Assembly (NCBI GenBank): GCA_951406725.2
Contig: OX597822.1
Span: 60,698,001-60,762,000, forward strand
Source: Octopus vulgaris
Taxonomy: Eukaryota
Direction of reading: 5' to 3'
DNA: 64,000 nt
Shown: one piece after another, positions 16,916-63,900 of the stretch
Layout: the number at the start of each line of letters is the position of its first letter
Position numbering within the stretch: position 1 is the first letter of the stretch
Translations under genes and position numbers: made by a program
The notes under the pieces: model-generated
The model's database searches: none
What the model saw: only the letters and a program-made list of their open reading frames with translations
Told to the model about the DNA's origin: nothing

Positions 16916-17332
16916 TGCTGTTGTGTAAGGATATATATGTATGTAAGGTAAAAACTAAGAGAAAACAGTCATTCTAAACATAAATGAAACATTTATTTTA
17001 TACATTAAATGTCTAAATATCTGTGTTGTTAAGTTTATAATTTATCAGAGTACCTTCAAGAATGTATAGTTACAAGATATATATTACAAATAAGAAAATG
17101 GAGAAACACATTAGTTGGGTTATCAGCTTTAGGATATTAGAATGTTGTCTTATTTAATTAACAAAACTACAACCACAATAACATACATATATACAGTATA
17201 AAATTCAATACATTTAAGATAAGAATACAAACAGTTATTAAAAAAACATTAATATAAATTGTTAACTATTTGTATTCTTATCTTAAATGTATTGAATTTT
17301 ATACTGTATATATGTATGTTATTATGGTTCTA

Positions 17333-17508
17333 GTGTGTACAAAGGGCAGGGACGTGATCGACGTGGGCTGATGACCTACGCCTACCGGGAATTCCTCGTT
17401 CACGGGGTTGGTTCCAGGCCCCGATCCCTATCACGGGAGGTGATTCAGAGGTTTCCCGACCCTCTCAGGCCGGGGGGAGATGCGCCCGCTGATACCTCCA
17501 GTGTAGCG
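17333..17508 (-). pseudogene. 18S (SSU) rRNA fragment, 3' region, dispersed copy
   Basis: Reverse complement reads cgctacactg...gatagggatc...gaacgaggaattcc...acgtccctgccctttgtacacac, conserved eukaryotic SSU motifs. Confidence 0.92.
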
Positions 17509-17632
17509 AAGGTATCTCCAGGGATACAGGCATCCAGTAACAGGACCTCCGTAATGCTATGATGGACCGTGAAGTCTGGCGTAACACAGTAAATTCCATT
17601 GTCTCGACCACAGTCGAACAATGATGATGATG
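17509..17632 (+). mobile_element. RTE-type LINE extreme 3' end with (ATG)n tail
   Basis: Encodes DLRNAMMDREVWRN (RTE C-terminal DR..WR motif) then (atg)n and the second TSD copy. Confidence 0.75.
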
Positions 17633-17929
17633 ATGGTTCTAGTTTTGTTAATTAAATAAGACAATATTTGTCTTAATAATATACTAAAGCTGATAAACTA
17701 ACTAATGTGTTTCTCCATTTTCTTATTTGTAAAATAAATTAATGGTAAAATATTTCTTTACCTTCACCCATTTAATACAATAAGTGAGTTCATTGCATTG
17801 CAATTAAAAACACTTGTGTATTAATAATTTAGGTAGTATACCAACAGTATATTGGATAAGTATTATCCCTTAGTAGGTTGGATCCACAACCCCTAACTTA
17901 TTTGGTATATATATATATATACACACACA

Positions 17930-23907: not shown

Positions 23908-24000
23908 CTGATATTGATAAAGTGATTAATACTTCATTATAAATATATACATGATCATAAATTAATGTGTGTAGTTATGCACAATTAAATATATACATTT

Positions 24001-24064
<64 letters not shown>

Positions 24065-24489
24065 GCATGGAAGATGGACGTTAAATGATGATGATGATGT
24101 GTGTGTATGTATTGGAATTACTAATGGATTATTTATTTTTTTATTAAGGATTTCCTTAATTCTTCAGTTATGGAACTACCAACCACTATTATCTTTTTAC
24201 AATGAACACTCCTTAATTCTTGAACGAAATGGTAACTACTAATATCCTTGATTAAAGATATTTTTTATTTATTCCTCTCTCTCCGACAACGGAATAATTA
24301 GCTTGTGGAAATCCTTGGTTAATAACATATGCATCACAAGATTAACTATTCTAGAAATAGCTGTAAGAGACTTAATGTATTTACTATAACTACTGTTATA
24401 TGTTTAAATCATAAATTAAATATTCTAAAGTGATACCCCATGTTTTGCTCATTTATTATTTCTCTATTTCTAATATATATATCTGACAG

Positions 24490-26563
24490 TGTCGGCTATA
24501 GCCTGGTCACTCGTATAGTTAACCAGAGATACACGAAGCAGTCATACCCAATGACTGGTGTAGCAGCACTATAGTCAATTGCTACAAAGATAAAGGTGAT
24601 GCTTTAGATACAAATAATTACAGAAGTATCAAGTTGTGGACCAGGTAATGAAGGTCACGGAGAGGGTCATAGCCCAACTAATTAGGGAGAGAGTCAGTTT
24701 AGATGGGATGCAGTATGGGTTCGTGCCAGGGAAAAGCACCACTGATGCTGTATTTGTGGTAAGACAGCTGCAGGAGAAATACCTAACCAAAGATAAACCT
24801 CTGCACCTGGCTTTCGTTGACATGGAGAAAGCCTTTGACAGAGTCCCCAGATCCCTTATCTGGTGGTCAATGAGGAAACTAGGGATAGATGAATGGTTAG
24901 TGAGAGCTGTGCAAGCCATGTACAGGGATGCTGTCAGTAAGGTGAGGGTTGGCAACGAGTACAGTAAAGAATTCCAGGTAGAGGTCCACCAAGGTTCAGT
25001 TCTCAGCCCCCTCCTATTTATCATAGTCCTCCAGGCAATAACAGAGGAATTCAAGACAGGATGCCCCTGGGAGCTCTTTTATGCTGATGACCTTGCTCAA
25101 ATTGTTGAGTTACTACCAGAACTCGGGGAGAAGTTTCAGGTGTGGGAACAAGGATTAGAATCGAAGGGCCTTAGAGTCAACCTAGCTGAAACCAAAGTCC
25201 TAATAAGTAGGAAGGCAGGCAAACCACAAATCCCTTCAGGTAGATGGCCCTGCTCGATCTGTAGAAAAGGCGTAGGTAGAAACTCTATAAGATGTACCCA
25301 GTGTAAGCTATGGACACATAAGAGGCACAGCAATATCAAAGGAAGGCTAACTGGGAAGATAGTTTTTGTATGTGGCATATGCTCAGAAGCAATAAACACT
25401 GAAAATGTGCAGAGAACAACTTCCGCCACATTCCAGGGAGAAAAACTAGAAGTAGTTGATAGCTTCTGTTACCTAGGTGACCAAGTCAGTAGCGGGGGAG
25501 GGTGTGCTGAAAGTGTAGCTGCTAGAATAAGAATAGCTTGGGCAAAGTTCAGAGAGCACTTACCTCTGCTGGTGACAAAGGGCCTCTCGCTCAGAGTAAA
25601 AGGTAGGCTGTATGACATATGTGTACGAACAGCCATGCTACATAGCAGTGAAACATGGGCCATGACTGCTGAGGATATACATAAGCTCACAGGGAATGAA
25701 GCCAGTATGATCTGATGGATGTGTAATGTCAGTGTGCATACTCAACAGAGTGTAAGTACCTTGAGAGAAAAGTTGGACCTATGAAGCATCAGATGTGGTG
25801 TGCAAGAGAGATGACTGTGCTGGTATGGTCATGTGGCAAGAATAGATGAGGATAGCTGCATGAAAAAGTGCCACACCCTAGCGGTTAAGGGAACCTGTGA
25901 AAGAGATAGACCCAGGAAGACCTGGGATGAAGTGGTGAAGCATGACCTTCGAATATTAGTGGACTTTTGGAAATATGCTGTGCTTGAGAAGACCCGGCAA
26001 GCCAAGTGAGACCATAACCACGTGGCCTATACTAGGGGTGTAACCAGCCACTTATGCATACCTTTCCTTCATTGGACACTAAACTCTGCTTGCAAAGACC
26101 TGTTGAGGTAAATGAAATCGAAATCAAATTCAATGACTGGCATCCGTGCTAGTGGAGCACTAAGAGCATCATCCGAGCGTGATCGTTGCCAGAGCAGCTA
26201 ACTGGCTTCTGTGCCGGTGGCACGTAAAAAGTACCATTCAAGCATGACCATTACCAGCATCGCCTTACTGGCACATGTAAAAACATTCGAGCGATGTCGT
26301 TGCCAGTGCCGCTGGACTGGCTCCTGTGCAGGTGGCACATAAAAAACACCGTTTGAGCATGGCCGTTGCCAGTACTGCCTGACTGGCATGTAAAAGCACC
26401 CACTACACTCTCGGAGTGGTTGGCGTTAGGAAGGGCATCCAGCTGTAGAATTCTGCCAGATCAAGATTGGAGCCTGGTGTAGCCATCTGGTTCGCCAGTC
26501 CTCAGTCAAATCATGCAACCCATGCTAGCATGGAAAGCGAATGTTAAATGATGATGATGATGA
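24490..26563 (+). mobile_element. RTE LINE, 5'-truncated, with a 359-aa RT ORF and an embedded Cys/His finger
   Basis: QYGFVPGKST, FVDMEKAFD, HQGSVLSPLLF, YADD, YLG; 3' UTR ends in (gat)n. Confidence 0.92.
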
Positions 26564-26779
26564 TGTCTACCTGCTCTTGAATGAGCAACTTCTAGCCATT
26601 TTTGAGGGTAGCATCAACACCAACTTTTTCTCAGCTGCAGTTCAAGCTTGAGTTTTAGTAGTAAATCAAACCAAGCACTTAAAGTACATACTTAATACAT
26701 TACGACATCAGACGAATATCCATTCTGCATGCATGCATATGTGAGTTGTAGGCAGACAGACCAACAATCAGACAGATAG

Positions 26780-27990
26780 ATTTCTTTATTAGCCATGTAG
26801 GGCCGAATACAGAGGGGACAATATAATGTAGAATTTTTCTTTTTCAAAATCAATCAAAAGGGAACAGAAAACCCATTTTTTTGGACGCGTAAACAGAGAA
26901 ATAACACAAAAGTCATTGTTAACAATTAGAGTTCCCAAAAGGGGGAAGAACTGTAACATTAACTAGGTTTATCTGTGGAAAGAAAAACCTATGTAAAAGA
27001 ACCATGGTAACCTCAGAAACAAAAGGGCAAACATTAACATGAGAGCAAGATGCTCTTTCTCTCTTTGTTTTATAGGATCATGCTCAAGGTGGTTCCATCA
27101 TCTATTCGTACCATCATTGCCACATTCACCCACCTTTTGTTGACCTTTTCATTAGACAAAACTTCCTTCTCTTTTCTCACTTTCCTCTTCAAGTGATACT
27201 TGAAGAAGTTGATGAGAGGTTGGCCAGAGAGGAAAGTGTTTGTCTCTAAACTTTTTGCATGAGTCCACCACACACATTCTTTCACCATAGCCACCAGTAC
27301 AATGGAAACTACCTTGTCTTACCAGTTGAAGGAAGGTGGCAGGACAATATTCACAAAAGACTCGGCTGACAACTGAATTCGTCCCACACATGACAGCAGC
27401 TATTCGACATAAGCTCACAGATCTGAAATGCTTAGACATTGCATGAGTGTGTGCAGAACGGTTTCATTGCTCTGACCGCATCTCGAGCAAGTCAGTCCTG
27501 TGTTTCTTGACCCATGCCTGTAGAGCTTATCCCAAATGGACAATGCTTCCCGATAGCACTGCCACGTCAGTGATCTCTGGAAATTGTCCATAGTTCCGGC
27601 CCAAAAGTGGTCCTGAAGAGGCAGGCCAGGTATTCCTCATTGGCACCCAGGTTCTCCCTAAGAATGTCGTCGCACCTTCACTAATCCTTTATAGAACGCC
27701 TTTATGGAATTGAAGTCACACAAGTTTGATCCCAGACAGCAGAGTTGCTCAAGAGCATGGCAACACTTGCAGTGCCATTCACCCAGCCTCGGTTTCTATT
27801 TGATCCACGATTGCAGTTCAGTCAAAGAGATGAGCTATGGGAAGGTATGTCTCACAAACAGCAACCAAACCTGTTTACCATCATCTATGAAGTGCTGGAA
27901 ATGTCGCAGTCTCAGCACATGTCTGCACATCATTAACTATGGCATGCCCAACCCTCCACACATAGATATAAGAGTTGCAAGCATGGCTGT
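26780..27990 (-). mobile_element. L1/Tx1-like LINE 3' part, frameshifted
   Basis: MVKECVWWT...LINFFKYHLKRKVRKE...KRW, homologous to 4975..5352. Confidence 0.65.
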
Positions 27991-28529
27991 ATGGTGAAGC
28001 TCATTTCAGCCACATATGATTCTTTTCAGCTTCTCAAACCCTTTAGAAAACTCATCCAATAGTTCTCTTGGCCTCTTTGCCAAGTAGCTAATGAATATCT
28101 AGCAAAAACTACATAGGGAGTTTTCACATACAAAATATCCAATTTAGAGATAGTCAAGTCAAAATGTTCACATCTTTCTATATACTCAAAGATGCTGGAA
28201 CTCACTTGAGCTAACAAAGTCTTACATTTATGTGGAATTTTGTCCTGGTAATGTGAACTGTACAACATATACACTGCACTAGATATATACTACAAGATAT
28301 CTTTATATATATCATCATCAGATGATGATGTGGTCTTTTGCAAAGACCACATAGTTTGTGTGAAATAGCTATTTGGCAGGCTGTACTTCTACATATTCAT
28401 GAAAGCTGCTTACTGTCTCACCCTATGAACTGGCCATAACTAACATTCTCTAAATACTCTACTGTTCTATAACTCAGAGTATGCTTCTTTTGGATTTATG
28501 ATTTAGTGACAATATATATATATCAGCAT

Positions 28530-28817
28530 TGCCTATCGTTACCAGCATCGCCTTACTGGCTCCTGTGCCGTTGGCATGTGTAAAAAGATTCGAGTGAGGT
28601 CATTGCCAGTAACGCCTGGCTGGCCCCCGTACCAGTGGCATGTAAAAGCACCCACTACACTCTTGGAGTTGTTGATGTTAGGAAGGGCATCCAGCTGTAG
28701 AAACTCTGCCAGATCAAGACTGGAGCCTGGTGCATCCATCTGGTTTGCCAGCCCTCAGTCAAACTGTCCAACCCATGCTAGCATGGAAAGCGGACGTTAA
28801 ACGATGATGATGATGAT
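28530..28817 (+). mobile_element. RTE 3' UTR/tail copy
   Basis: Closely similar to 26250..26563. Confidence 0.8.
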
Positions 28818-29013
28818 ATATATATATAAAAGTAAATAAATGGCACAACGAAGTACCGATATTTACTGGAAAATAGCGAACGTAATAAATACGACGCTAA
28901 TGTATAGCTTCACTGCGTATGTACTAGAAAAAATGCATGTGTGCAACAAACATGAAAAAATTGTCTTACCTCTAGGGAGAACATCTGAAAAATGAAATAC
29001 CTAGAAATGGATA

Positions 29014-29085
29014 ATGCGGTACCGGTTTCAGATTTTTCAAAATATGTCTGCCCACATATATTTGATTTATCCTCATCAGCCACAT
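29014..29085 (-). ncRNA. Type I minimal hammerhead ribozyme (predicted)
   Basis: atgtgg-CTGATGA-ggat...atct-GAAA-ccgg-TA-ccgcat: stem I pairs fully, palindromic ACCGGT helix III, GUA cleavage triplet. Confidence 0.8.
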
Positions 29086-29443
29086 ATACCTCGACAATAT
29101 TTCAAATGTTGCCACATCTATGCCAGTACACTCGACTGAACGCCAAAACATTGACAGAACGAGAACAGTGAAAAAGTTTCAAAGAAAATAGTAATGCAAT
29201 ACGAGAGTATTGCTTTCCAGTAAAGGATAGCCCGTGAGGGTAAAATTACTGGAAAGCAATACGAGAGTATTGCTTTCCAGTAAAGGATAGCCCGTGAGGG
29301 TAAAATTACTGGAAAGCAATACTCTCGTATTGCATTACTATTTTCTTTGAAACTTCTTCACTGTTCTCGTTCTGTCAACGTTTTGGCGTTCAGTCGAGTG
29401 TACTGGCATAGATGTGGCAACATTTGAAATATTGTCGAGGTAT

Positions 29444-29515
29444 ATGTGTCTGATGAGGATAAATCAAATATATGTGGGCAGACATATTTTGAAAAATCTG
29501 AAACCGGTACCGCAT
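29444..29515 (+). ncRNA. Type I minimal hammerhead ribozyme (predicted; one stem I mismatch next to the core)
   Basis: atgtgt-CTGATGA(29450)-ggat...atct-GAAA(29500)-ccgg-TA-ccgcat. Confidence 0.72.
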
Positions 29516-29770
29516 TATCCATTTCTAGGTATTTCATTTTTCAGATGTTCTCCCTAGAGGTAAGACAATTTTTTCATGTTTGTTGCACACACGCATTTTT
29601 GCTAGTACATACGCAGTGAAGCTATACATTAGCATCGTATTTATTACGTTCGCTATTTTCCAGTAAATATCGGTACTTCGTTGTGCCATTTATTTACTTT
29701 TATGTATAATTTTACCCTCACGGGCTATCCTTTACTGGAAAGCAATACTCTCGTATTGCTTTACTATTTT

Positions 29771-29833
<63 letters not shown>

Positions 29834-29835
<2 letters not shown>

Positions 29836-30136
29836 AGGCGCAATGGCCCAGTGGTTAGGGCAGCGGACTCGCGGTTGGAGGATCGCAGTTTTGATTCCAA
29901 GACCGGGTGTTGTGTGTGTTTATTGAGTGAAAACACCTAAAAGCTCCACGAGGCTCCAGTAGGGGGTGGTGGTGACCCCTGTTATACTCTCTAGCCCCAA
30001 CTTTCTCTCACTCTTTCTTCCTGTTTCTTGAGTAATGCTGCAATGGACTGGCATCCCGTCCAGCTGGGGGGAACACATACACCACAGAAACCAGGAAACC
30101 GAGTCCATGAGCCTAGCTAGGCTTGAAAAGGGTGCA

Positions 30137-30140
<4 letters not shown>
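29834..30140 (+). mobile_element. tRNA-derived SINE
   Basis: ggaggcgcaatggcccagtggttaggg A box, degenerate B box ttttgattcc, A/TA tail. Confidence 0.8.
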
Positions 30141-30187
<47 letters not shown>

Positions 30188-31202
30188 TATACGTGTGTGT
30201 GTGTAGCTAAATATATTTAACCACATGTAAATATATTACTGATCTATTCATTAGAGTGTGCTTGTTTTTCGAATACATGATGCATGGACAATATATATAA
30301 TACGCACACAAAATCTGACATACACCTTACACTAAATATACAATACTTCAAAAGGAACATGTCAGTGGTGGCCTAACTAACCTATTGGCTAAAAGGAAAA
30401 GAAAAATATTTACTACAAATGTCATATAGGCAAATCTAGTTCAATGTAACACTGGTTTCATATTTTGGAGCAAGGCCAGCAATTTTGAGGGTGTTGGTAA
30501 GTGAATTACATCGACTCCAGTGCTCAACTGGTACTTATTTTATCTATCCTGAAAATCAGCAATTTTTGGGAGGAGTTAAGTTGATTACATCGAACTTAGT
30601 GCACAACTGGTACATATTTTATCAACACCGAAAGGATGAAAAGCAAAGTTGACCTCAGCAAAATCTTAACTCAGAACACAAAGACAGACAAAATGCTTAG
30701 CAGCATTTTGTCCAGTATGCTAATGATTCTGCCAGCTTACCACCTTCTAGTTCAATGTAATATTAATACTTATACAGATGCTGTAACATTAGTCTGAAAG
30801 ACAGCAGTCTACTGTTTGGTGTATATCAACAACACCAAGGAGCTTCGATATAAGTCATTCCACCTGCAAGAAATTGCAACCAAATATTCCTTAAATGTGG
30901 ATGACACATTAAATAGTGTAGTATTGTAGAAAATAACAAGTTGGTTACCTTTGATTATAGCTCTTTGAGATTGCAGCTGATCAAGAGCTAAACAACATTC
31001 TAATTTCCAGGCTACTATCAGAGCTGATTTCTTTGGCTGTTGATGGCATTGTTATTGATGGTCAAGTTGTTAGGATTATAATCCTGCAGGCCAATTGGAC
31101 AACTGTTCATATCTTGCCATGGTAGGGAATATATTTGAGGTATTTAGAAGGTATCAGAAGATAAAGAGAAGAGCTTATATATATGTAAAAAAATAAACTT
31201 AC

Positions 31203-39880: not shown

Positions 39881-40872
39881 TTCTCCATTATTTCCAGGTC
39901 ATATCACCTGAGGCTAAAGCACTCGACAAGATCCAGGGGAAGAAACAAGCCTACCTTGAGACTCTGTGCCAATAGCAGCTGCGACAATTTGAAGTCCAAG
40001 TGCCTCATCTACTGCAGCCCCTTAGTCAACACACTTTTTGCAGGCATTGACAAAAGGTTAGGACCCTCCTGGAGGATGAGGAATACCAGCTGGCTGCTGC
40101 CTTCCACCCGTTTCACCTCATCTGGTTGTATGACAACATCAAGGTCGCTTTATCAATAAACATTTAATACTAATATTGTTACATTTGAGTTTTTTTACCC
40201 TTTTCTGACTCTAAAAGCCTTTAAAAACCTAAAAAAGAGCCAAAACTATGAAATTAGCCTTTTTTAGGTCTTCTAAAAGTTAAAACTATAAAATTAGCAT
40301 TTTTAATTCTAAAACAAAAAAATTATAGTCTTTCGGTTCTTAAAGCCCCTAAAGAGGCCAAAAAAAAGGCTGATTTTATAGTTTTGGCACTTTTTAAAGG
40401 TGTTTTTATGTGTGGCTTTCGAGCAAAAAGTGATTTTTTGTTTTTGTTTTTTCTATGATAGAAATTAATTTTAAGGGTTTATTGATAACTTACATTACAT
40501 TTTTAAAGAATTAACTGATTAACAGTTACTGAAGTTAACTTTTTGGTTAATGGATTAATGGTTAACGAAGTTAACTTTTCAACTAAGGGTACCCACCTTT
40601 GGTAAAAACCCCCTTGTGCAGAGTGACCATTATGGTGTCAAGTTAGCTGCACTGTAGAGAGAGAAGAGTGCAGGAGCAAGCATGCACCCCTGCTTCACAC
40701 CATGGCTTCACTAAATTCTCCATTGTATCATGTAGCTTTACCTGCAGCAGATGTCATCACTGCTGTGGATCAAGAGCAGGTCTTAATAGCCCACATGTAA
40801 GCCTGCCAGAGACAATTACTGAACACAAACAGGCAACATCAGCATACAATGGACAGCCGATATATATATATA

Positions 40873-41045
40873 TAGGAAAAAAAGCAACAAGAATGGATTA
40901 ATCCATTCTTGTTGCTTTTTTTCCTATTTGTAATCACCCCACTTGTCGTATGGTTAACACCATATAGATTTCCGGTGCATCCTAGTTAAGGACCATATTC
41001 ATGTGAATTCATTAGAATTCACTTGAATCTCAATTACTTAAACCA
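40873..41045 (+). mobile_element. Short hairpin-capped relative of the 53341..54498 element in (TA)n
   Basis: Palindrome centred on ggattaatcc, then taatcacccca...ggtgcatc...ccatattca...cttgaatct, homologous to 53341..53485 on the minus strand. Confidence 0.75.
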
Positions 41046-47639: not shown

Positions 47640-47671
47640 CAAATAACGATCTGAAGCTGACGACCAGGTTG
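47640..47671 (-). CDS. CFAP119: CFAP119 coding exon 2 (QPGRQLQIVIW), 32 nt
   Basis: ttttctccag|caa ... tg|gtaagt; W codon split with exon 3. Confidence 0.8.
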
Positions 47672-48823: not shown

Positions 48824-51800
48824 GAAGCGTTCTGTATTTTTCAGATTTCAAACAATTGATCATAAATATTTTTTATTCACTATTGCAACTACTCTGCAAC
48901 TAGCTACCGTGGCTTTTTTTCACTATCACTGCACTATACACCTGCAATACCACTTACACGACATCACCACTACTCCTGTAACTACTATCACTTTATCACC
49001 ATTGTCACGGCACCATCATAACTATCACTGTCAAAACCCCACCATTACAATTACATTGCCACTGCCGTGTCCATGTAACAATCTCACTACTAACAGTCAC
49101 AACACCGCTACAACCACTACACCCACACTGCCACTACCACCACAAATACCACTATTACAAAATCAACACTACACTATACTCTTCTGTCACCACCACTACC
49201 ACCACCACTCTAATGTCTACATTAATTGCTCTACCAATGGAAAGATCTGCCAGTTCATTGAACGAGGCACCTATTGTAAGTCTGTTGAATATACTTTATT
49301 TTCTTCTTAAAACACAGTGGGGTACTACTTAAGAAGAGTGGTCCCGGTGTGCGCACTCGCGTACTCGCGCATCCGCGCTAGCTAGTCGTGACTAGTCGAT
49401 CCTACAACGACTACCTAGCAAAATAAATAAAACACAAAATAAATAATTTTGGTAATCTTTCGTTTCTAGTAGACCTTTCCGTCGATTTCCGTAAAAAAAC
49501 TTCTTTTTTTTTTTTACATATGGACTTGCGGCAACTTTTGAAGTAATGAGAGCGAAAGAGACTAAGAGAAATCGAGGCGATCTTTCGTTTGTAGTAGCAC
49601 GTTTCCGTCGATGATTTCTGTAAAAAACTTTTATTTTTTTTACATATGGCCTTGTGGGAACATTTGAAGTAATGAGAGCGAAAGAGACTAAGAGGAAGCG
49701 ATTTTATGACGAGGGAATTTCTTTTGAAGTTATCAAAGCATTGATGTACATGTGTGTATGTGTGTGTGTTTGATGGGGTGTGGGAGACAGACAGTATGTT
49801 GTGTAAGTGAAGTGCTTCTGTTAGTGTGTGTGAAGAGACAGAGTAATGTGTGAAAGAGAGAGATAACTGAAATTTTTTACTCGGTGTATGTGTATATGTA
49901 TGTATGCATGTATGTGTGTGTGTGTATGTATGTGTGTATGTATCTATGTATGTGTGTGCGTATGTATGTATGTATGGCCGATTCAGTGTACACTGAATCG
50001 GCCATACATACATACACACATACACACACACACATACTTACACACACACATACATAGATACATACTCACACACACATACATGCAGACATACATATATACA
50101 TACACCGAGTAAAAAATTACACTGAATCGGCCATACATACATACATACACACACATACATAGATACATACACACACATACATAGATACATACACACACAC
50201 ACATACATGCATACATACATATACACATACACCGAGTAAAAAATTTCAGTTATCTCTCTCTGTCTCTTCACACACACTAACAGAAGCACTTCACTTACAC
50301 AACATACTGTCTGTCTCCCACACCCCATCAAACACACACACACACACACACACATGTACATCAATGCTTTGATAACTTCAAAAGAAATTCCCTCGTCATA
50401 AAATCGCTTCGTCTTAGTCTCTTTCGCTCTCATTACTTCAAATGTTCCCTCAAGGCCATATGTCAAAAAAATAAAAGTTTTTTTACGGAAATCGACGGAA
50501 ACGTGCTACTACAAACGAAAGATCGCCGAAAGCGATTGTATGACGAGGGAAGTTCTTTTGAAGTTACCGTGCATGGGAGCATTGATGTACATGTGTGTGT
50601 GTTTTATGGGGGTGTGGGACACAGAAAGTATGTTGTGTAAGTGAAGTGCTTCTGTTAGTGTGTGTGAAGAGACAGAGAGAATAATGTGTGAAATTTTTTA
50701 CTCGGTATATGTGTATATGTATGTATGCATGTATGTGTGTGTGTATGTATGTGTGTATGTATGTATGGCCGATTCAGTGTTTACATTATTTCGAGTTAAA
50801 ACGAAAGATTACCTTTGCCTGTTTATGTAACGGTCTGCTATGTAGAAAATAATGAGGTTGACTCAATGGAATAATGACAGTGATCGAAGATATAGACAAA
50901 TTTTTTTTTTAATCGTTATACATGCCTTGTCGACTGCTACTGTGCAGCCTTAATGTCTCTGTTGATGTGATGATGGTGAAATGGTAAGAAAAAGACGGGA
51001 GAGTTATAAAATGAGGAGGAGATATTCTTCTCATGAGAAAAGAGTTGCATGCAAAGGAAAAAAAAGTTAATAGTCTATAGATGTGCACAGAAACTGGGTG
51101 CAAGCATGCATATATATGCATGTGTAAACATTGTGTTGTGCAGCAAAAGGAACGAACAGTACAAATGTGTAACGAAAAGTGACAAAATCCTATTGGTAAT
51201 GTCCTGTGTGAAAAGTCTATGCTGAAAAGTGAGAAAAGGTTAGTTCTCTTGGTTGGGTAGCTGTCCTAAGTGTTGCATTTATGTATGGCAACTGTTTCCC
51301 TCGTGGATCTGTGCATCGGGTTGCAGTACATGTGGAATGTAATTAGTGTGTGTCCATTGAATCGGTGACTTCATTCCTTTCGTGTTGTGTTGGGCATGTG
51401 ACGATGGCGTTGTGAAAGTTCGTGTCCTATAATTCTTGTTGATGCGACTGGCACGGACTGTAATTGTTTTCAAGAGTTCATGCGATGCGAAAGCAGTAAG
51501 TCTTTGAAGTCGAGCTCACCAAATGTAATGGATAAGGTAACGAAGACTGCAGTTCTGTGGCTCCGGGGTCAGCAATTGTGGCAGGGTTGTTGTGTTCGAA
51601 TCACGTTGTGGGTAACCAGTTGTATCGTTGTGGTTGATGTATTCTAATAACGTCTCTCTGCCGATGCTCGATGCTGACAATACAGAATGTGAAGGTGGCA
51701 TTGTCACTTCTTCATTTCGGCCGAGTGTAGAAAAAGAGGTATATCACTGTGACACCTATTGTTTTCGTGTGGTGTCTGTGTAGACGCGGAAAAGTTTTAA

Positions 51801-56220: not shown

Positions 56221-59030
56221 ATAATAATAATAATAATAATAATAATGAAATTATTGTATACAGTGCTCAGGTGCACCACAACTTGTTGGACAGTGCATAT
56301 AAAGCACGTACAAATGTCTGGAAAGCGAAGAATGCATGAGTCAGATACATGCTTGTGTGTGTATGGAGGGGAGAAAATCAGGTGTAGTGTTGGCGAATCT
56401 CAGAAAGCATGGAAGTTTTGAAGGATGCAGTGCTCCGACAACTAACAACTGATGCCGGCAGTTTGTTCCATGCTTCAGCAACTCTCAGCGTGAAAAAATG
56501 TTTCCTGAAAGTCATGGGAGCTGTGCTGTTTTCTGACTTTGTAAATATGTCCACGGGTGTTAGATGGGTGGAGTTTGAAAAGGTGCTCAGAGTTATTGTT
56601 TGTACGATGGTTGATAATTTTATGGGTGTCTGCCAAGTCAGTTGCCAGACGTCGGAGTTTCAATGTGTCCATGCCCAGGGAAGTAAGGCGTTCAGAATAT
56701 GGCAAATGCCTGATGGAGGGTATTCTTTTGGTTACACGTCACTGAACGGCTTCCAGACGATTGATATCCTGGGCAAGATAGGGGTTCCAGACCGGTGATG
56801 CAAATTCCAGGCGAGGTTTTACCATAGCTATATAAAGCCGCAGATAGATAGTCAGAGAGCGGCTCACAAAGTTTTTGGTGAGTGATGCCAAGACACCCTC
56901 AGCCTTCTTGACAATTTTACCGATGTGTTTTGTCCAATGCAAATCACTGTCGACAATAACACCCAGGTCACGTTCACATGAAGACTTTTTGAGACTAGTG
57001 TTGTGGAGGGAGTAGGTGGACGCTGGGTTTCTCCTCCCAAAATGCATAGTGGTACATTTGTCCACAGCCAGCTTGAGTTGCCAGTCTATGATCCACTGCT
57101 GCATTGTGTCCAGGTCTGCTTGCAATAGAGATCTATAGTGTACAGGATCTGACCTCTTTATTTCGAGGTACAGCTTGATGTCATCTGCATATTTCAGCAC
57201 TGTGGAATTCTTTAAGTTGGCATCTATGTCATTAACATATGCAACAAATAAAAGGGGGCCAAGAACAGATCCCTGTGGTACACCAGATGTTATCTCATAG
57301 GGCAAAGATTGCTGTCCTAGAACTGTGACAACCTCTTTTCGGTCGAAAATAAAGGACTTCAACCAGTTATAGAGTTCGTCTCTTACGCCCAACGCAGAGA
57401 GCTTCACCATAAGTCTTTTGTGTGGCACAGAGTTAAAAGCCTCAGCAAAGTCCAGGTAAACAAAATCCACCCAGGATCCGCGATCAGTGATTTGGGTAAC
57501 GTCCTCAAGAAACTCGATGAGTTGATTACAGCAGCTGGAGTTAGGAATAAATCCAAACTGTGATGGCTGGATGAGGCTGTGAGACTTCCAGAAGTTCCAG
57601 AGGGTTTCTCTGATACAGGATTCCATCAGTTTGGCGATGCAGTTAGTAAGACTAATGGGGCGATAGTTGACAGGCGATGTGCGGTTGCCTTTTTTGAACA
57701 GAGGGATAACACTGGCAGTTTTCCACTGTTCTGGAGTAACACCATTGTCAAGACAAAATTGGAAGAATAGAGAAAGTTGGCTTAGAAGAAAGTACCCACC
57801 GCGTTTGAGAAGTACGTATATAACACCATCGAGACCAGGAGAGGCATAGTTGCGTTTATTCTTAAGGTGGCGTTGTAGCATTGCTGGTGTAAATTGCATA
57901 GTAGATATAGAGTCCGATGTCAGTGGTGATGAAGTTGGAACATTTTGGTCTTCGACAGTAAAGATGCCGGCATAACATCCAGCAATGATTTCTGCACATT
58001 CTTCGGGATTGCCAGTAATCTGTCCTGTGTGGAGATTGCGAAGGGGACCAACTGGAGAGTGGGGTCTCTGCTTTGAGTGCACATACTTCCAGAACACTTT
58101 GCTGTCAGGGTTAGTTGCAATGCGTTGTTCAAATTCAAGCACTGCCTTTTTTGTCACCTGCTTGAGGTGGTTGGCTGACCTATTGCGCTTTTTCCTGTTG
58201 CCCTCTGATTTGTGCAATTTGTATTCCTGTTCAGCATTACGGCGTTCTTTCCTGGCAAGTCGGACTGCTGCAGTCTCCCAAATTGTACTATTGTGTGTTT
58301 TTTTGTGCTTGCGTGGTACTGATGCTGCACATGCTGCACATGCCGCCCATATTGAATTCAGAATGTTCTGGAGTATAGTGTCCACATCTTCAGAGGCATA
58401 AAATTCGAGCCAGTTTGGGCGTTGCAGCTCAGTTCAATAAGAGCTCCAGTCTGCTTTATTCCAGTCAAAGCGGGCAGTCTGAAGATGGTTGTGTTTTTTG
58501 TTACAACCAATCAGAGATAAGTCGACCATGATCATGGAATGATCAGAGTTACCTAAAGGTTCTTCAGTAGTGACACTAATGATTGTTTCAGGAGATGCAG
58601 TAAGTAGCAGATCCAAAGTGTTGTTGCCCCTTGTTGGGGAAGTAACAACTTGGAACCAATTTGAATTCAGCACCAGTTCAAGGAAATCGTCTGCACTTTG
58701 TGGCCAACGGAAGGCCTCCCAGTCAATCTCAGGGAAATTGAAGTCGCCTGCAATATAAACATACACGGCTGTTTTCATGGTAGCAGCTCTGAGGATATCA
58801 AAAAGCTGTGTGTCTTGACGATAATTTGGGGGGGGGGGGGGGCCGGTAAACGACTCCAAGCAGAAGTGTTGACGTGGTCATGTGTATACTGCAGAAAAAT
58901 ACTTCCTGCTGAGATTGGTTCAAATCATTACTTTAACTCGTGTCCATTGTCCAGAAATATCTGTGACTTCTTCAGCGACACTTCGTTTTCGTGTGTGTTC
59001 TTGCACCACTTCAAAGGTTATTAGGTTTTG
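56221..59030 (-). mobile_element. CR1-type LINE, most of ORF2 (APE endonuclease + RT), disrupted
   Basis: AGDFNFPEIDW, PTRGNNTLDL, SDH (endonuclease); NYRPISLT, GVPQGSVLGPLLF, YADD (RT, ORF 56739..58385); (att)n tail. Confidence 0.95.
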
Positions 59031-60980: not shown

Positions 60981-63900
60981 TACTTTCAGTTAATCATCCA
61001 GCTACAGAACTACTTCCATGCTTTATCTGCATTTTCTTTATAAACATATGGGTATTTAAGTTTAATATCACTTCTGTCAATCAGTCTGTTGTCCTTCATA
61101 CTCTAACAAAATAATTAAAAAGCAGTCATTTCTTACTATATATCATGTAATAATTAACAGTTTAGTTAACTACATTGCAATTTATTTCTCCAGCCAAAAT
61201 CTCACCGTATCAAGATTGTTGTTTGGTAAGTTTGTTGTTATCTATATCAAACTTAAGTATGTTCTATCTGTTACAATACAACAGGCAGTCTCTGTAATGC
61301 TTCAAACACATCTAAGTAAATCAGTAAAACACCAGAGCTCTAATAAAAAACACCAAAAATACAGACACTGGAAACAACTCCAGTCAAAGCTAGACACATG
61401 TACAACATACAATGATAGCTCAACATGCTAGAAATGGCAACTAGATCTCTCTTATACAACACCCTACCATCTTAAAATAAAAGTGAACACATTGGACAGT
61501 CCTGGATTTTTTGCACACAGGAAAAGGAGTAGATAGTCATAGGTATTCTTCAGTTAGGTGCTGATAAGGCATATAAACACATCAACAACATGCAAGAACT
61601 CTACTACGGCAACAAGACAAATCCCACTGAAACACTACTACTGTACCAACAACACACCACCACATTACTACAACATAAGCACCACACCAAAACACTACTA
61701 CAACACCAGCACATAACACTGTTATAACACCAAAGCATGTATACATGCACTACAACCCAACCTACCCCTTCAAACACCCAGACGCACTGACACTATACAA
61801 GAACACCACTGCTGCAATATCAATCCATACTGCCACTATAACACTCCGGAAATATCTAGGCACAAATAGGATAATCTAGAACACTAATATAACACCAATA
61901 CATACAGTCACACAATCACTACATAACCAATACATAAAATCACCACACCACCAATTCACATGGTTCCTACACCACCAGTGCAAAGCTTGTACAGCACCAA
62001 CACACTAGCAGGCTATCCAATGCTACATAGCTCATTCAGCACCCCAAACGTCTAGATATAGCAATATACAAGAGCATTATGGACTAACAAGGGAGCTTCT
62101 CTGTGATCATTCAACATACTAGAAACAGCAGCCATATTTCCCTCAAACCTCAAATTATCTTAAAAAAGAAGTGCACATTGGATAATGTAATATTGAATAT
62201 GTTGTCTGAAAATAATATTGGATGGCTATGTTTGGAACATCACTGCACGTAGCTCTGCATAATTGAGAGTTACTCTGTGATACACAGTAATAACAACAAG
62301 ACCTCCAACTCTATACTCAAAAGGCTGGCATCAAGTATTTGAAATAGATATGACAAATTTAATTTCTGTCAATACTGTTTGATATATAAATGAATAACAC
62401 AACACCCTCTTCTTCTGATCAATTAATTGGTATTTCTAGTCATCAAATATCAAACAGTTGACTCTAGTTAGCCACTACTACACAAAAATATCTGTCATTA
62501 TATTTAGAGATATTTAAGGCTGCAAGCTGGAAGTGTCATTAGCGCGCTGTGTAAAATGTTTTGCGGTATTTCGTCTGCTTCCACGTTCTAAGTTCAAATT
62601 CTGCTAAGGTTGATTTTGCCTTTCATCCTTTCAGGGTCGATGAAATAAGAACCAGTTACATACTGGGGTCGATGTAATCAACTAGCTCCCTTCCCCAAAA
62701 AATTTTCATGGCCTTGTGCCTAGAGTAGAAATAATATATTTAGAGATATTTAGCTTGGCAAGCTGATAGAATCATTAGAGTGTCAGAAAAAAGATACCTT
62801 GTGGTGTTTGTTCCAGCTCTTTATATTATGAGTTCAAATCCCACTGTGTTTAAATTTCCTTTCATCTTTTCAGGGTTGATAAAATAAAGTATCAATCAAG
62901 TACTGGTGTCAATGGTATTGACTTAAACTTTTCCCTCAAAATTACTGAGTTTGTACTTAAATCCGAAACATTTATGAATTTACAGATAATACCTTGTGTG
63001 TACACAAATAGATGTACAACTGCTACTATTGTACTTAGAGTTCCATGTAGTTTATCATATTCCAGTCTGCTACCAGTATGGTAGTTAGGTAATTACTGCC
63101 TCTCCATCTATCCATCTCTTGACATTAGTTCACTGTAACAATGTAATAAAGTTCCTTGATGATCCATTCTGGTTAAGCATCCATATGTGCTTGGAATGCA
63201 GGTTCCAAGCAACCATAATAGTGAAATGTACATAAGAACTAATATGTAAACCTGTCTTTATTTTTATTTCTCCTACATTTAGTGATATAAAAAATTTACT
63301 TGTCCAACTTATTCAAATAATATTTTAGGAGAGAGAATTTGTTTTTATAATAAATGATTCTATGTGTGAATGGAATGGTTTGAAACTTCATGAGATATAT
63401 ATTTAATTTTTCTCACTTTTGTCTTTTGTTGCCTATGTTGAAATAACCACAGGAATGACTTGAACCCAGAACAATCAGAAACACTTATGAAAGCTCCAAC
63501 ACTGAAAAAAGTAAAAGAGTAAGTATCTTTTGTTGAAAACTGGAATTCATCATACTAGCATTTCTGCAGATTCACCCTTTGCAGTGGAACCAGGTATAGT
63601 GTTTATTTTCTGTCCTTCATAGTTTTCAGTTTAAAGGAGAGTTGCTTTAGCATCTATAAATGAACAATGCCAGAAATTTGTGGGGAGGGTTTGATTAAAT
63701 CAACCCTAGTTTTATCAACCCTGGAAAGATAAAAGACAGAGCTGACCATGGCAGGATTTGAACTCAGAATGTGAACAGCCATAAAAAATATCACTGTGTA
63801 TTTTTATTTTCTGATGCTTTAACTATTTTGCCACCTTGTGCCTCTATAAATAATGGAATCTCTTCTGTATTAGATAATATTTCCACTTCCATCTAACTCT

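Follow-up and report, generated by a model that had tools for sequence, protein, structure and literature searches.

Head-to-head inverted pair of a 426-nt hammerhead repeat in an octopus CFAP119 intron: a likely non-autonomous PLE derivative

An intron of the Octopus vulgaris gene CFAP119 contains a single insertion of a high-copy, protein-free 426-nt hammerhead repeat. The insertion combines an inverted pair, a tail on one arm only, an AT-rich target and a ribozyme, which together make up the published signature of Penelope-like elements (PLEs). It is thus most likely a non-autonomous derivative of a PLE, of the kind known as non-LTR retrozymes. It was probably pasted into a (TA)n tract by a PLE reverse transcriptase (RT) and endonuclease, from an uncleaved RNA longer than the unit. 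The whole 64-kb stretch of DNA that was analysed is referred to below as the window.

Anatomy of the insertion and its ribozyme motifs

The segment 28826-29773 is a head-to-head inverted pair of an ORF-less, cyclic 426-nt unit, located inside a (TA)n tract. In the cycle numbering adopted here, h1 corresponds to position 29707 and the cycle comprises 426 positions. The features are the following:

23923-31202, minus strand: host intron of CFAP119/CCDC189, between exons 31319-31203 and 23922-23851
28813-28825, no strand: left (TA)n target remnant
28826-29248, minus strand: minus arm, h1-h423, about one full turn, without tail
29014-29085, minus strand: intact type I hammerhead motif, with a 6-bp stem I, CUGAUGA, long stem II, GAAA and palindromic helix III ACCGGU
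29249-29308, minus strand: duplicated junction piece of 60 nt, antisense h1-h56 plus a short sense part
29306-29773, plus strand: plus arm, h26-h426 followed by re-entry (tail) over h1-h67; 468 nt, more than one unit
29444-29515, plus strand: second hammerhead motif, with a private G-to-T at 29449
29707-29773, plus strand: tail-like extension of about 67-70 nt, in the plus arm only, containing a 10-bp hairpin
29774-29833, no strand: right (TA)n tract, about 30 repeats

The inverted repeat (28821-29223 and 29306-29708) covers 403 nt with 98% identity, and the arms differ at 6 of 398 sites. A direct repeat of 42 nt (29306-29347 and 29732-29773, 98% identity, spacing 426 nt) bears out the claim of the preliminary description that the plus copy re-enters its own start after 426 nt. 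The same description had presented the locus as two permuted 426-nt copies, which holds for the plus copy with its re-entry; the minus arm has a certain length of 423 nt, or up to 428 nt when one mismatch into the TA tract is allowed, without any re-entry, and the 60-nt piece at the centre of the pair, a tandem duplication (29193-29252 and 29253-29312), had been missed. Furthermore, the minus copy had been placed 26 nt earlier in the cycle: an offset of 25-27 nt (h1 versus h26) was found, blurred by a 3-nt microhomology, but the start sequence of this copy is present twice, at 29308 and 29248, because the 60-nt piece is duplicated. The 5' ends of both arms face the centre and both 3' ends adjoin (TA)n, flanks within which a target duplication is unreadable.

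Over 56 nt, the junction piece matches the complement of the tail copy at 100%, and at h54, where both arms differ, it has the same letter as the tail copy; it switches at a 3-nt microhomology and at a 10-bp hairpin. Judged from these letters, it may be either a fold-back product or an assembly artefact.

No further copy of the unit is found within the 64-kb window. The unit has a GC content of 36%, and its longest ATG frames code for 37 aa (plus arm, sense) and 59 aa (the others). A Pfam scan, covering 144 of the 545 stop-free frames of at least 45 aa of the window, retrieved no family for the 18 frames overlapping the element, in agreement with the earlier statement that the unit has no ORF, and no GIY-YIG family among all 144 frames. 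A MITE reading of the 403-nt inverted repeat was rejected, since the arms are the same unit in different registers and not the termini of a larger element. The flanks consist of two SINE-like repeats: the left one (28510-28812) has seven further matches in the window and the right one (29834-30140) none, the latter having a tRNA-like head by reading, in which ARAGORN finds no tRNA.

Both arms contain CUGAUGA, a long stem II, GAAA, the palindrome ACCGGU and GUA, with hammerhead core pattern matches at 29450 (plus strand) and 29079 (minus strand). The minus copy has the type I order of helices I, II and III around the core CUGANGA ... GAAA ... UH, with predicted cleavage after the GUA at 29022-29020, and is the sole match to a strict type I descriptor in the 64 kb, simulated windows giving one match per 100. 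In the plus copy, the G-to-T at 29449 breaks the core-proximal (first) stem I pair, at a position where the family depth is 99% G in two DNA runs. Thus, of the earlier proposal of one hammerhead per copy with a palindromic ACCGGU helix III, the motif stands in both copies, that of the plus copy with a stem I mismatch. The self-duplex of helix III has a predicted energy of -8.3 kcal/mol.

Rfam gave no hammerhead match in the whole window at gathering score, and the 35 matches obtained at E<=10 include no hammerhead family, so that the ribozyme call rests on motif, fold and family variation. A pattern scan of metagenomes found one locus only (L001), which shares just a 20-nt pattern within a sequence of 55% GC and was taken as a chance match, and the scan of viral contigs gave none.

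The family in public sequencing runs

A run search listed 24 runs, 20 of them with part of the unit, with four organism labels; none of the listed runs is on record as RNA. Four runs were analysed through all their contigs, and for two of these runs, X14 and X16, an RNA origin is no more than a guess. In two DNA runs, with two organism labels, 1383 and 1252 contigs matched the unit. The depth summed across the unit ranges from 1.7e4 to 3.5e5, a value which is not a copy number, versus 31-136 for the single DNA-run contigs listed. The unit is thus shown to belong to a large, high-copy family. Depth peaks over 29536-29695 and is lowest over the ribozyme; this unevenness may reflect 5' truncation or divergence.

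The cycle junction (h426-h1) is covered at a depth of 7.2e4-8.8e4, and the bins of the tail-to-body junction (29328-29359) at 2.5e4-8.8e4. Five of the six joints listed step back roughly a unit length: DNA runs contain four of these, and the fifth comes from a guessed-RNA run, in a single contig with a depth of 7.7 which covers 29657-29753 and then 29328-29430. None of these six joints from the four runs changes strand, and the central junction is thus not seen there; none of the contigs listed spans the whole stretch or two ribozymes. The cycle is a property of the family which is present in DNA, and says nothing on its own about circular RNA.

Family variation was studied on 40 listed variants out of 89. 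None of these lies in CUGAUGA, GAAA or helix III, and only 5 of the 40 break predicted pairs, versus 14.1 +/- 2.4 expected (1 in 10000 draws). Outside the ribozyme, pairs are broken by 4 of 31 listed variants, versus 10.6 expected (6 in 10000 draws). Three pairs (29468:29488, 29362:29615 and 29629:29702) vary on both sides, as judged from frequencies and not from linkage; the count of compensated pairs is weak when taken alone (300 in 10000 draws; outside the ribozyme, 1072 in 10000). The variants of the family thus appear to spare the predicted fold. Moreover, indels of 1-2 nt are frequent (in X1, 40% of the depth at 29656 carries one), which fits a non-coding RNA.

The arms carry the same minority letter at 6 of the 8 sites where the read majority differs, and therefore derive from one source lineage. 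The insertion is recent, its arms being 1.5% apart; a rough age of about 2 million years would follow if the arms were identical at birth and the calibration quoted in PMC13282606 holds.

Several loose ends of contigs were also recorded. Behind 29771, two contigs of X1 pass beyond the tail end into sequence that terminates in telomere-like CCCTAA repeats, which could be a telomeric insertion or one into an adjacent repeat. In X14, before 29528, one variant of the family extends the palindromic helix III to 10 nt and might be able to fold as a monomer. Further loose ends, before 29488, suggest a subfamily whose stem II is of another kind.

Origin of the insertion and the RNA template

The layout of the locus has several counterparts in the PLE literature. 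PLE insertions are described with an inverted 5'-truncated copy, a tail of 30-40 bp at one end and a bias towards microsatellites (PMC8557442), and with head-to-head inverted pLTRs whose junctions are palindromic, the pLTRs being sufficient in trans (PMC3846280). The minimal hammerheads of PLEs come in pairs, one per strand, at distances of 100-700 bp, and their helix III is palindromic (PMC4209133). The protein of an anole PLE nicks and extends both target strands at AT-rich DNA, two internal RT start sites bound the tail, and unprocessed, uncleaved RNA is the dominant substrate (PMC11167929). A 2026 preprint argues that retrozymes are non-autonomous PLE derivatives, from co-occurrence and likeness to pLTRs in vertebrates (10.64898/2026.07.22.740005). 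In Octopus vulgaris itself, some PLE families have been active in recent times (PMC13282606); the parts seen of PMC8967140 and PMC8490949 add nothing specific.

A GIY-YIG endonuclease would have nicked the TA tract, and a cDNA primed from the right flank would have begun at the tail end and run for 468 nt, past one unit, crossing the ribozyme without leaving a scar. For the other arm there are two possible sources: a second cDNA with its priming on the left flank, at a start site that gives no tail, or the first cDNA copied by folding back. The two arms would then have been joined via the 3-nt microhomology, with an extra 60-nt fold-back round at the tail hairpin. A 5'-to-3' reading of either flank leads into the antisense of the unit, the arrangement expected of two cDNAs primed by the target. 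The length of the plus arm requires a continuous template of more than one unit over the unscarred cleavage site, which may have been supplied by tandem read-through, by a jump or by a ligated circle. Most probably, transcription had read through a tandem source locus, or else copying had jumped between two RNAs.

A tandem precursor, a template jump and a circle all predict the observed DNA and are not distinguishable from it. Moreover, the differing inner ends of the arms are microhomology junctions, and no proof of a circle. The preliminary description had taken the permuted registers as the signature of a circular or tandem template: copying from more than one unit is supported by the 468 nt of the plus arm, by the high depth over both cycle junctions in DNA runs and by the guessed-RNA contig that joins 29753 to 29328, but the registers themselves are inner ends of the head-to-head junction.

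Concerning the autonomous partner, no PLE-type ORF with RT and GIY-YIG is found in or adjoining the element, and a 47-codon frame across the tail has no match in 1.84 billion proteins. The RT frame at 24618-25712 was rejected as PLE partner, its motifs being LINE-type by reading. This plus-strand frame belongs to a LINE fragment and has a Cys-rich, PHD-like insert after the RT domain; another LINE fragment, with an endonuclease and RT pair, lies at 56742-58877 on the minus strand.

It is possible, though rather unlikely, that the same element and the same PLE machinery employed as template a ligated 426-nt circle, made from a multimer that dimeric hammerheads had cleaved; copying around this circle would give one turn in the minus arm and 1.1 turns in the plus arm. 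The best point for such a circle is that the minus arm stops within about 3 nt of one turn, which is a single post hoc observation; such a length also follows from copying around a looped cDNA with 42-nt direct repeats, as we infer. Both arms cross the cleavage site without a scar, one guessed-RNA contig goes back by 426 nt, with 97 nt on its short side, and a guessed-RNA contig has a longer, still palindromic helix III, all of which would suit a circle; the same cycle junction is nevertheless present in DNA runs, where no circle is needed. The strong fold of the unit (z of -7.4 linear and -6.5 circular) also speaks for a circle, but z <= -7 is reached by 3 of 34 control stretches of the window. 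Nor does the fold favour the circular form, with -119.2 kcal/mol versus -118.0 to -126.2 kcal/mol for the linear permutations; as the permutations differ by at most 8 kcal/mol, a circle-specific fold was discarded as a test. Since the genomic unit is already continuous at the GUA site, RT-PCR over that site is not diagnostic of a circle either.

In the published record, circles of 170-400 nt have been demonstrated for coral, mussel and axolotl retrozymes (PMC7229834), while against a circle it can be argued that minimal hammerheads cleave poorly (PMC4209133), that 8 of 9 Xenopus dimers did not cleave and one did (10.64898/2026.07.22.740005), and that the anole PLE employs unprocessed RNA (PMC11167929). 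A fuller version of the circular template is held to be doubtful: a large octopus family of 426-nt ribozyme circles, with a fold conserved far beyond the ribozyme, on which, at this locus, a PLE enzyme would have primed synthesis from each strand of the target, using two start sites and making exactly one turn on one side and 1.1 turns on the other. If true, it would be direct insertion-level evidence of PLE proteins mobilising retrozyme circles.

Two of the control stretches with z below -7 contain perfect local inverted repeats, near 40850-40900 and 49950-50030, and fold-back structures are not rare in the 64-kb window.

It is improbable, on the other hand, that the unit is the solo pLTR of an autonomous PLE, in which reverse transcription starts internally near the 5' end of the mRNA, copies the pLTR and jumps to a second mRNA, creating the apparent 426-nt cycle anew in many insertions. 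Internal initiation near the ORF start has been demonstrated for the anole PLE (PMC11167929). PLEs can have 5' introns. These are resembled by a splice-donor-like site at 29560 and an acceptor-like site at 29663, but no joint skipping from 29560 to 29663 occurs among the six listed, contigs showing presence and not absence. Similarly, a 24-codon frame from an ATG at 29702 stays open through the tail; against it, the tail frame has no protein match (1.84 billion proteins), and the ATG is variable, with A>T at 12-21% of depth, as well as paired in the fold. Furthermore, no recognisable ORF-like continuation was seen among the 21 listed of 197 loose ends, and the depth of the tail-to-body junction, which is family-wide, also argues against a solo pLTR.

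Host gene and relation to known elements

The host gene was identified by an exon match to the CCDC189/CFAP119 protein of Octopus sinensis (100% identity, 82% of the query), and eight exons of CFAP119 were mapped on the minus strand. Residues 1-7 do not join on directly to the exon at 47671 and are taken as a separate exon, not located; by this count of coding exons, the element lies in intron 6, with its minus-strand ribozyme sense to the pre-mRNA, as had been claimed.

In the minus-strand transcript the antisense arm is transcribed before the ribozyme arm, and the fold of the whole insert (-770 kcal/mol) pairs 80 of the 81 ribozyme nt with the opposite arm. All 15 tested ribozyme stem pairs have a probability of 0.0 in its presence, versus 0.83-1.0 in its absence. 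As it is predicted to lie buried in an arm-arm duplex, the ribozyme is unlikely to cut the host pre-mRNA, as is also expected from one ribozyme per strand with a dimer-type helix III, and it is predicted to be silent at this locus. Thus, of the two effects envisaged earlier, cutting of the transcript finds no support in view of this predicted capture, while folding of the transcript is upheld as a prediction, in the form of a duplex of about 400 bp. That the intronic ribozyme serves the host by cutting CFAP119 pre-mRNA is most improbable: the intact copy does have the orientation of the pre-mRNA and a correct predicted fold when alone, but all its tested stem pairs are predicted to be lost to the opposite arm, a dimer would need a partner in trans, and the insertion is young.

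Two other observations concern the surroundings of the gene. Short plus-strand exons at 61194-61226 and 63454-63519 resemble the N-terminus of an O. vulgaris CFAP119-like protein, P0004 (64% identity; E 6.9 for the first and 0.002 for the second), and possibly belong to a paralogue divergent from the minus-strand CFAP119. In addition, a 3' fragment of eukaryotic 18S rRNA lies on the minus strand at 17323-17640 (Rfam RF01960, 106.5 bits; absent from the window-wide gathering scan), in a single copy in the window. It runs into what we take to be the 3' end of an RTE-type LINE, and may represent an rRNA-LINE chimera in a CFAP119 intron.

Among known systems, as described in PMC7229834 (Cervera and de la Pena 2020) and 10.64898/2026.07.22.740005 (Li, Clavereau and Pollet 2026), metazoan non-LTR retrozymes share with the octopus unit the ORF-less cyclic organization, one type I hammerhead, a GC content under 45%, high copy number and the dimer-type helix III. 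The size of 426 nt had been called close to that of metazoan retrozyme circles: it falls inside the 51-972 bp range given for retrozymes by Li et al. (10.64898/2026.07.22.740005), but just above the demonstrated circles of 170-400 nt (PMC7229834). Retrozymes form tandem arrays with two ribozymes on one strand, whereas the octopus locus is an inverted pair, known from DNA, and falls outside the definition of an active copy given by Li et al. (10.64898/2026.07.22.740005).

The pLTR and tail of EN+ PLEs (Penelope/Poseidon, Neptune, Nematis) show the same head-to-head inverted pair with a palindromic junction, tail on one arm and AT-rich or microsatellite target, as well as a minimal hammerhead whose helix II is long and whose helix III is small and palindromic. 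They differ in encoding an RT/GIY-YIG ORF, which the octopus unit lacks, in their tail of 30-40 nt (PMC8557442) versus about 67-70 nt, and in the closing pair of helix II, usually G-C in EN+ PLEs and G-U or A-U in octopus; unlike theirs, the octopus tail runs back into the body of its own unit. Finally, Chlamys non-autonomous PLEs such as MRC1 (PMC8557442) are equally short and non-coding, with pLTR-like and head-to-tail insertions, but belong to another lineage and have known autonomous partners, unlike the octopus unit.

The octopus unit is a further example of a known element type. The literature listings examined showed no report of a cephalopod retrozyme, although supplements of papers may list one. 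The link between animal retrozymes and PLEs has so far rested, in 10.64898/2026.07.22.740005 and PMC7229834, on shared ribozymes, co-occurrence and sequence likeness; an ORF-less cyclic unit with the insertion layout of PLEs represents independent support for it. For the host, the likely consequence is long intronic double-stranded RNA and not cleavage, long RNA duplexes being substrates for ADAR editing.
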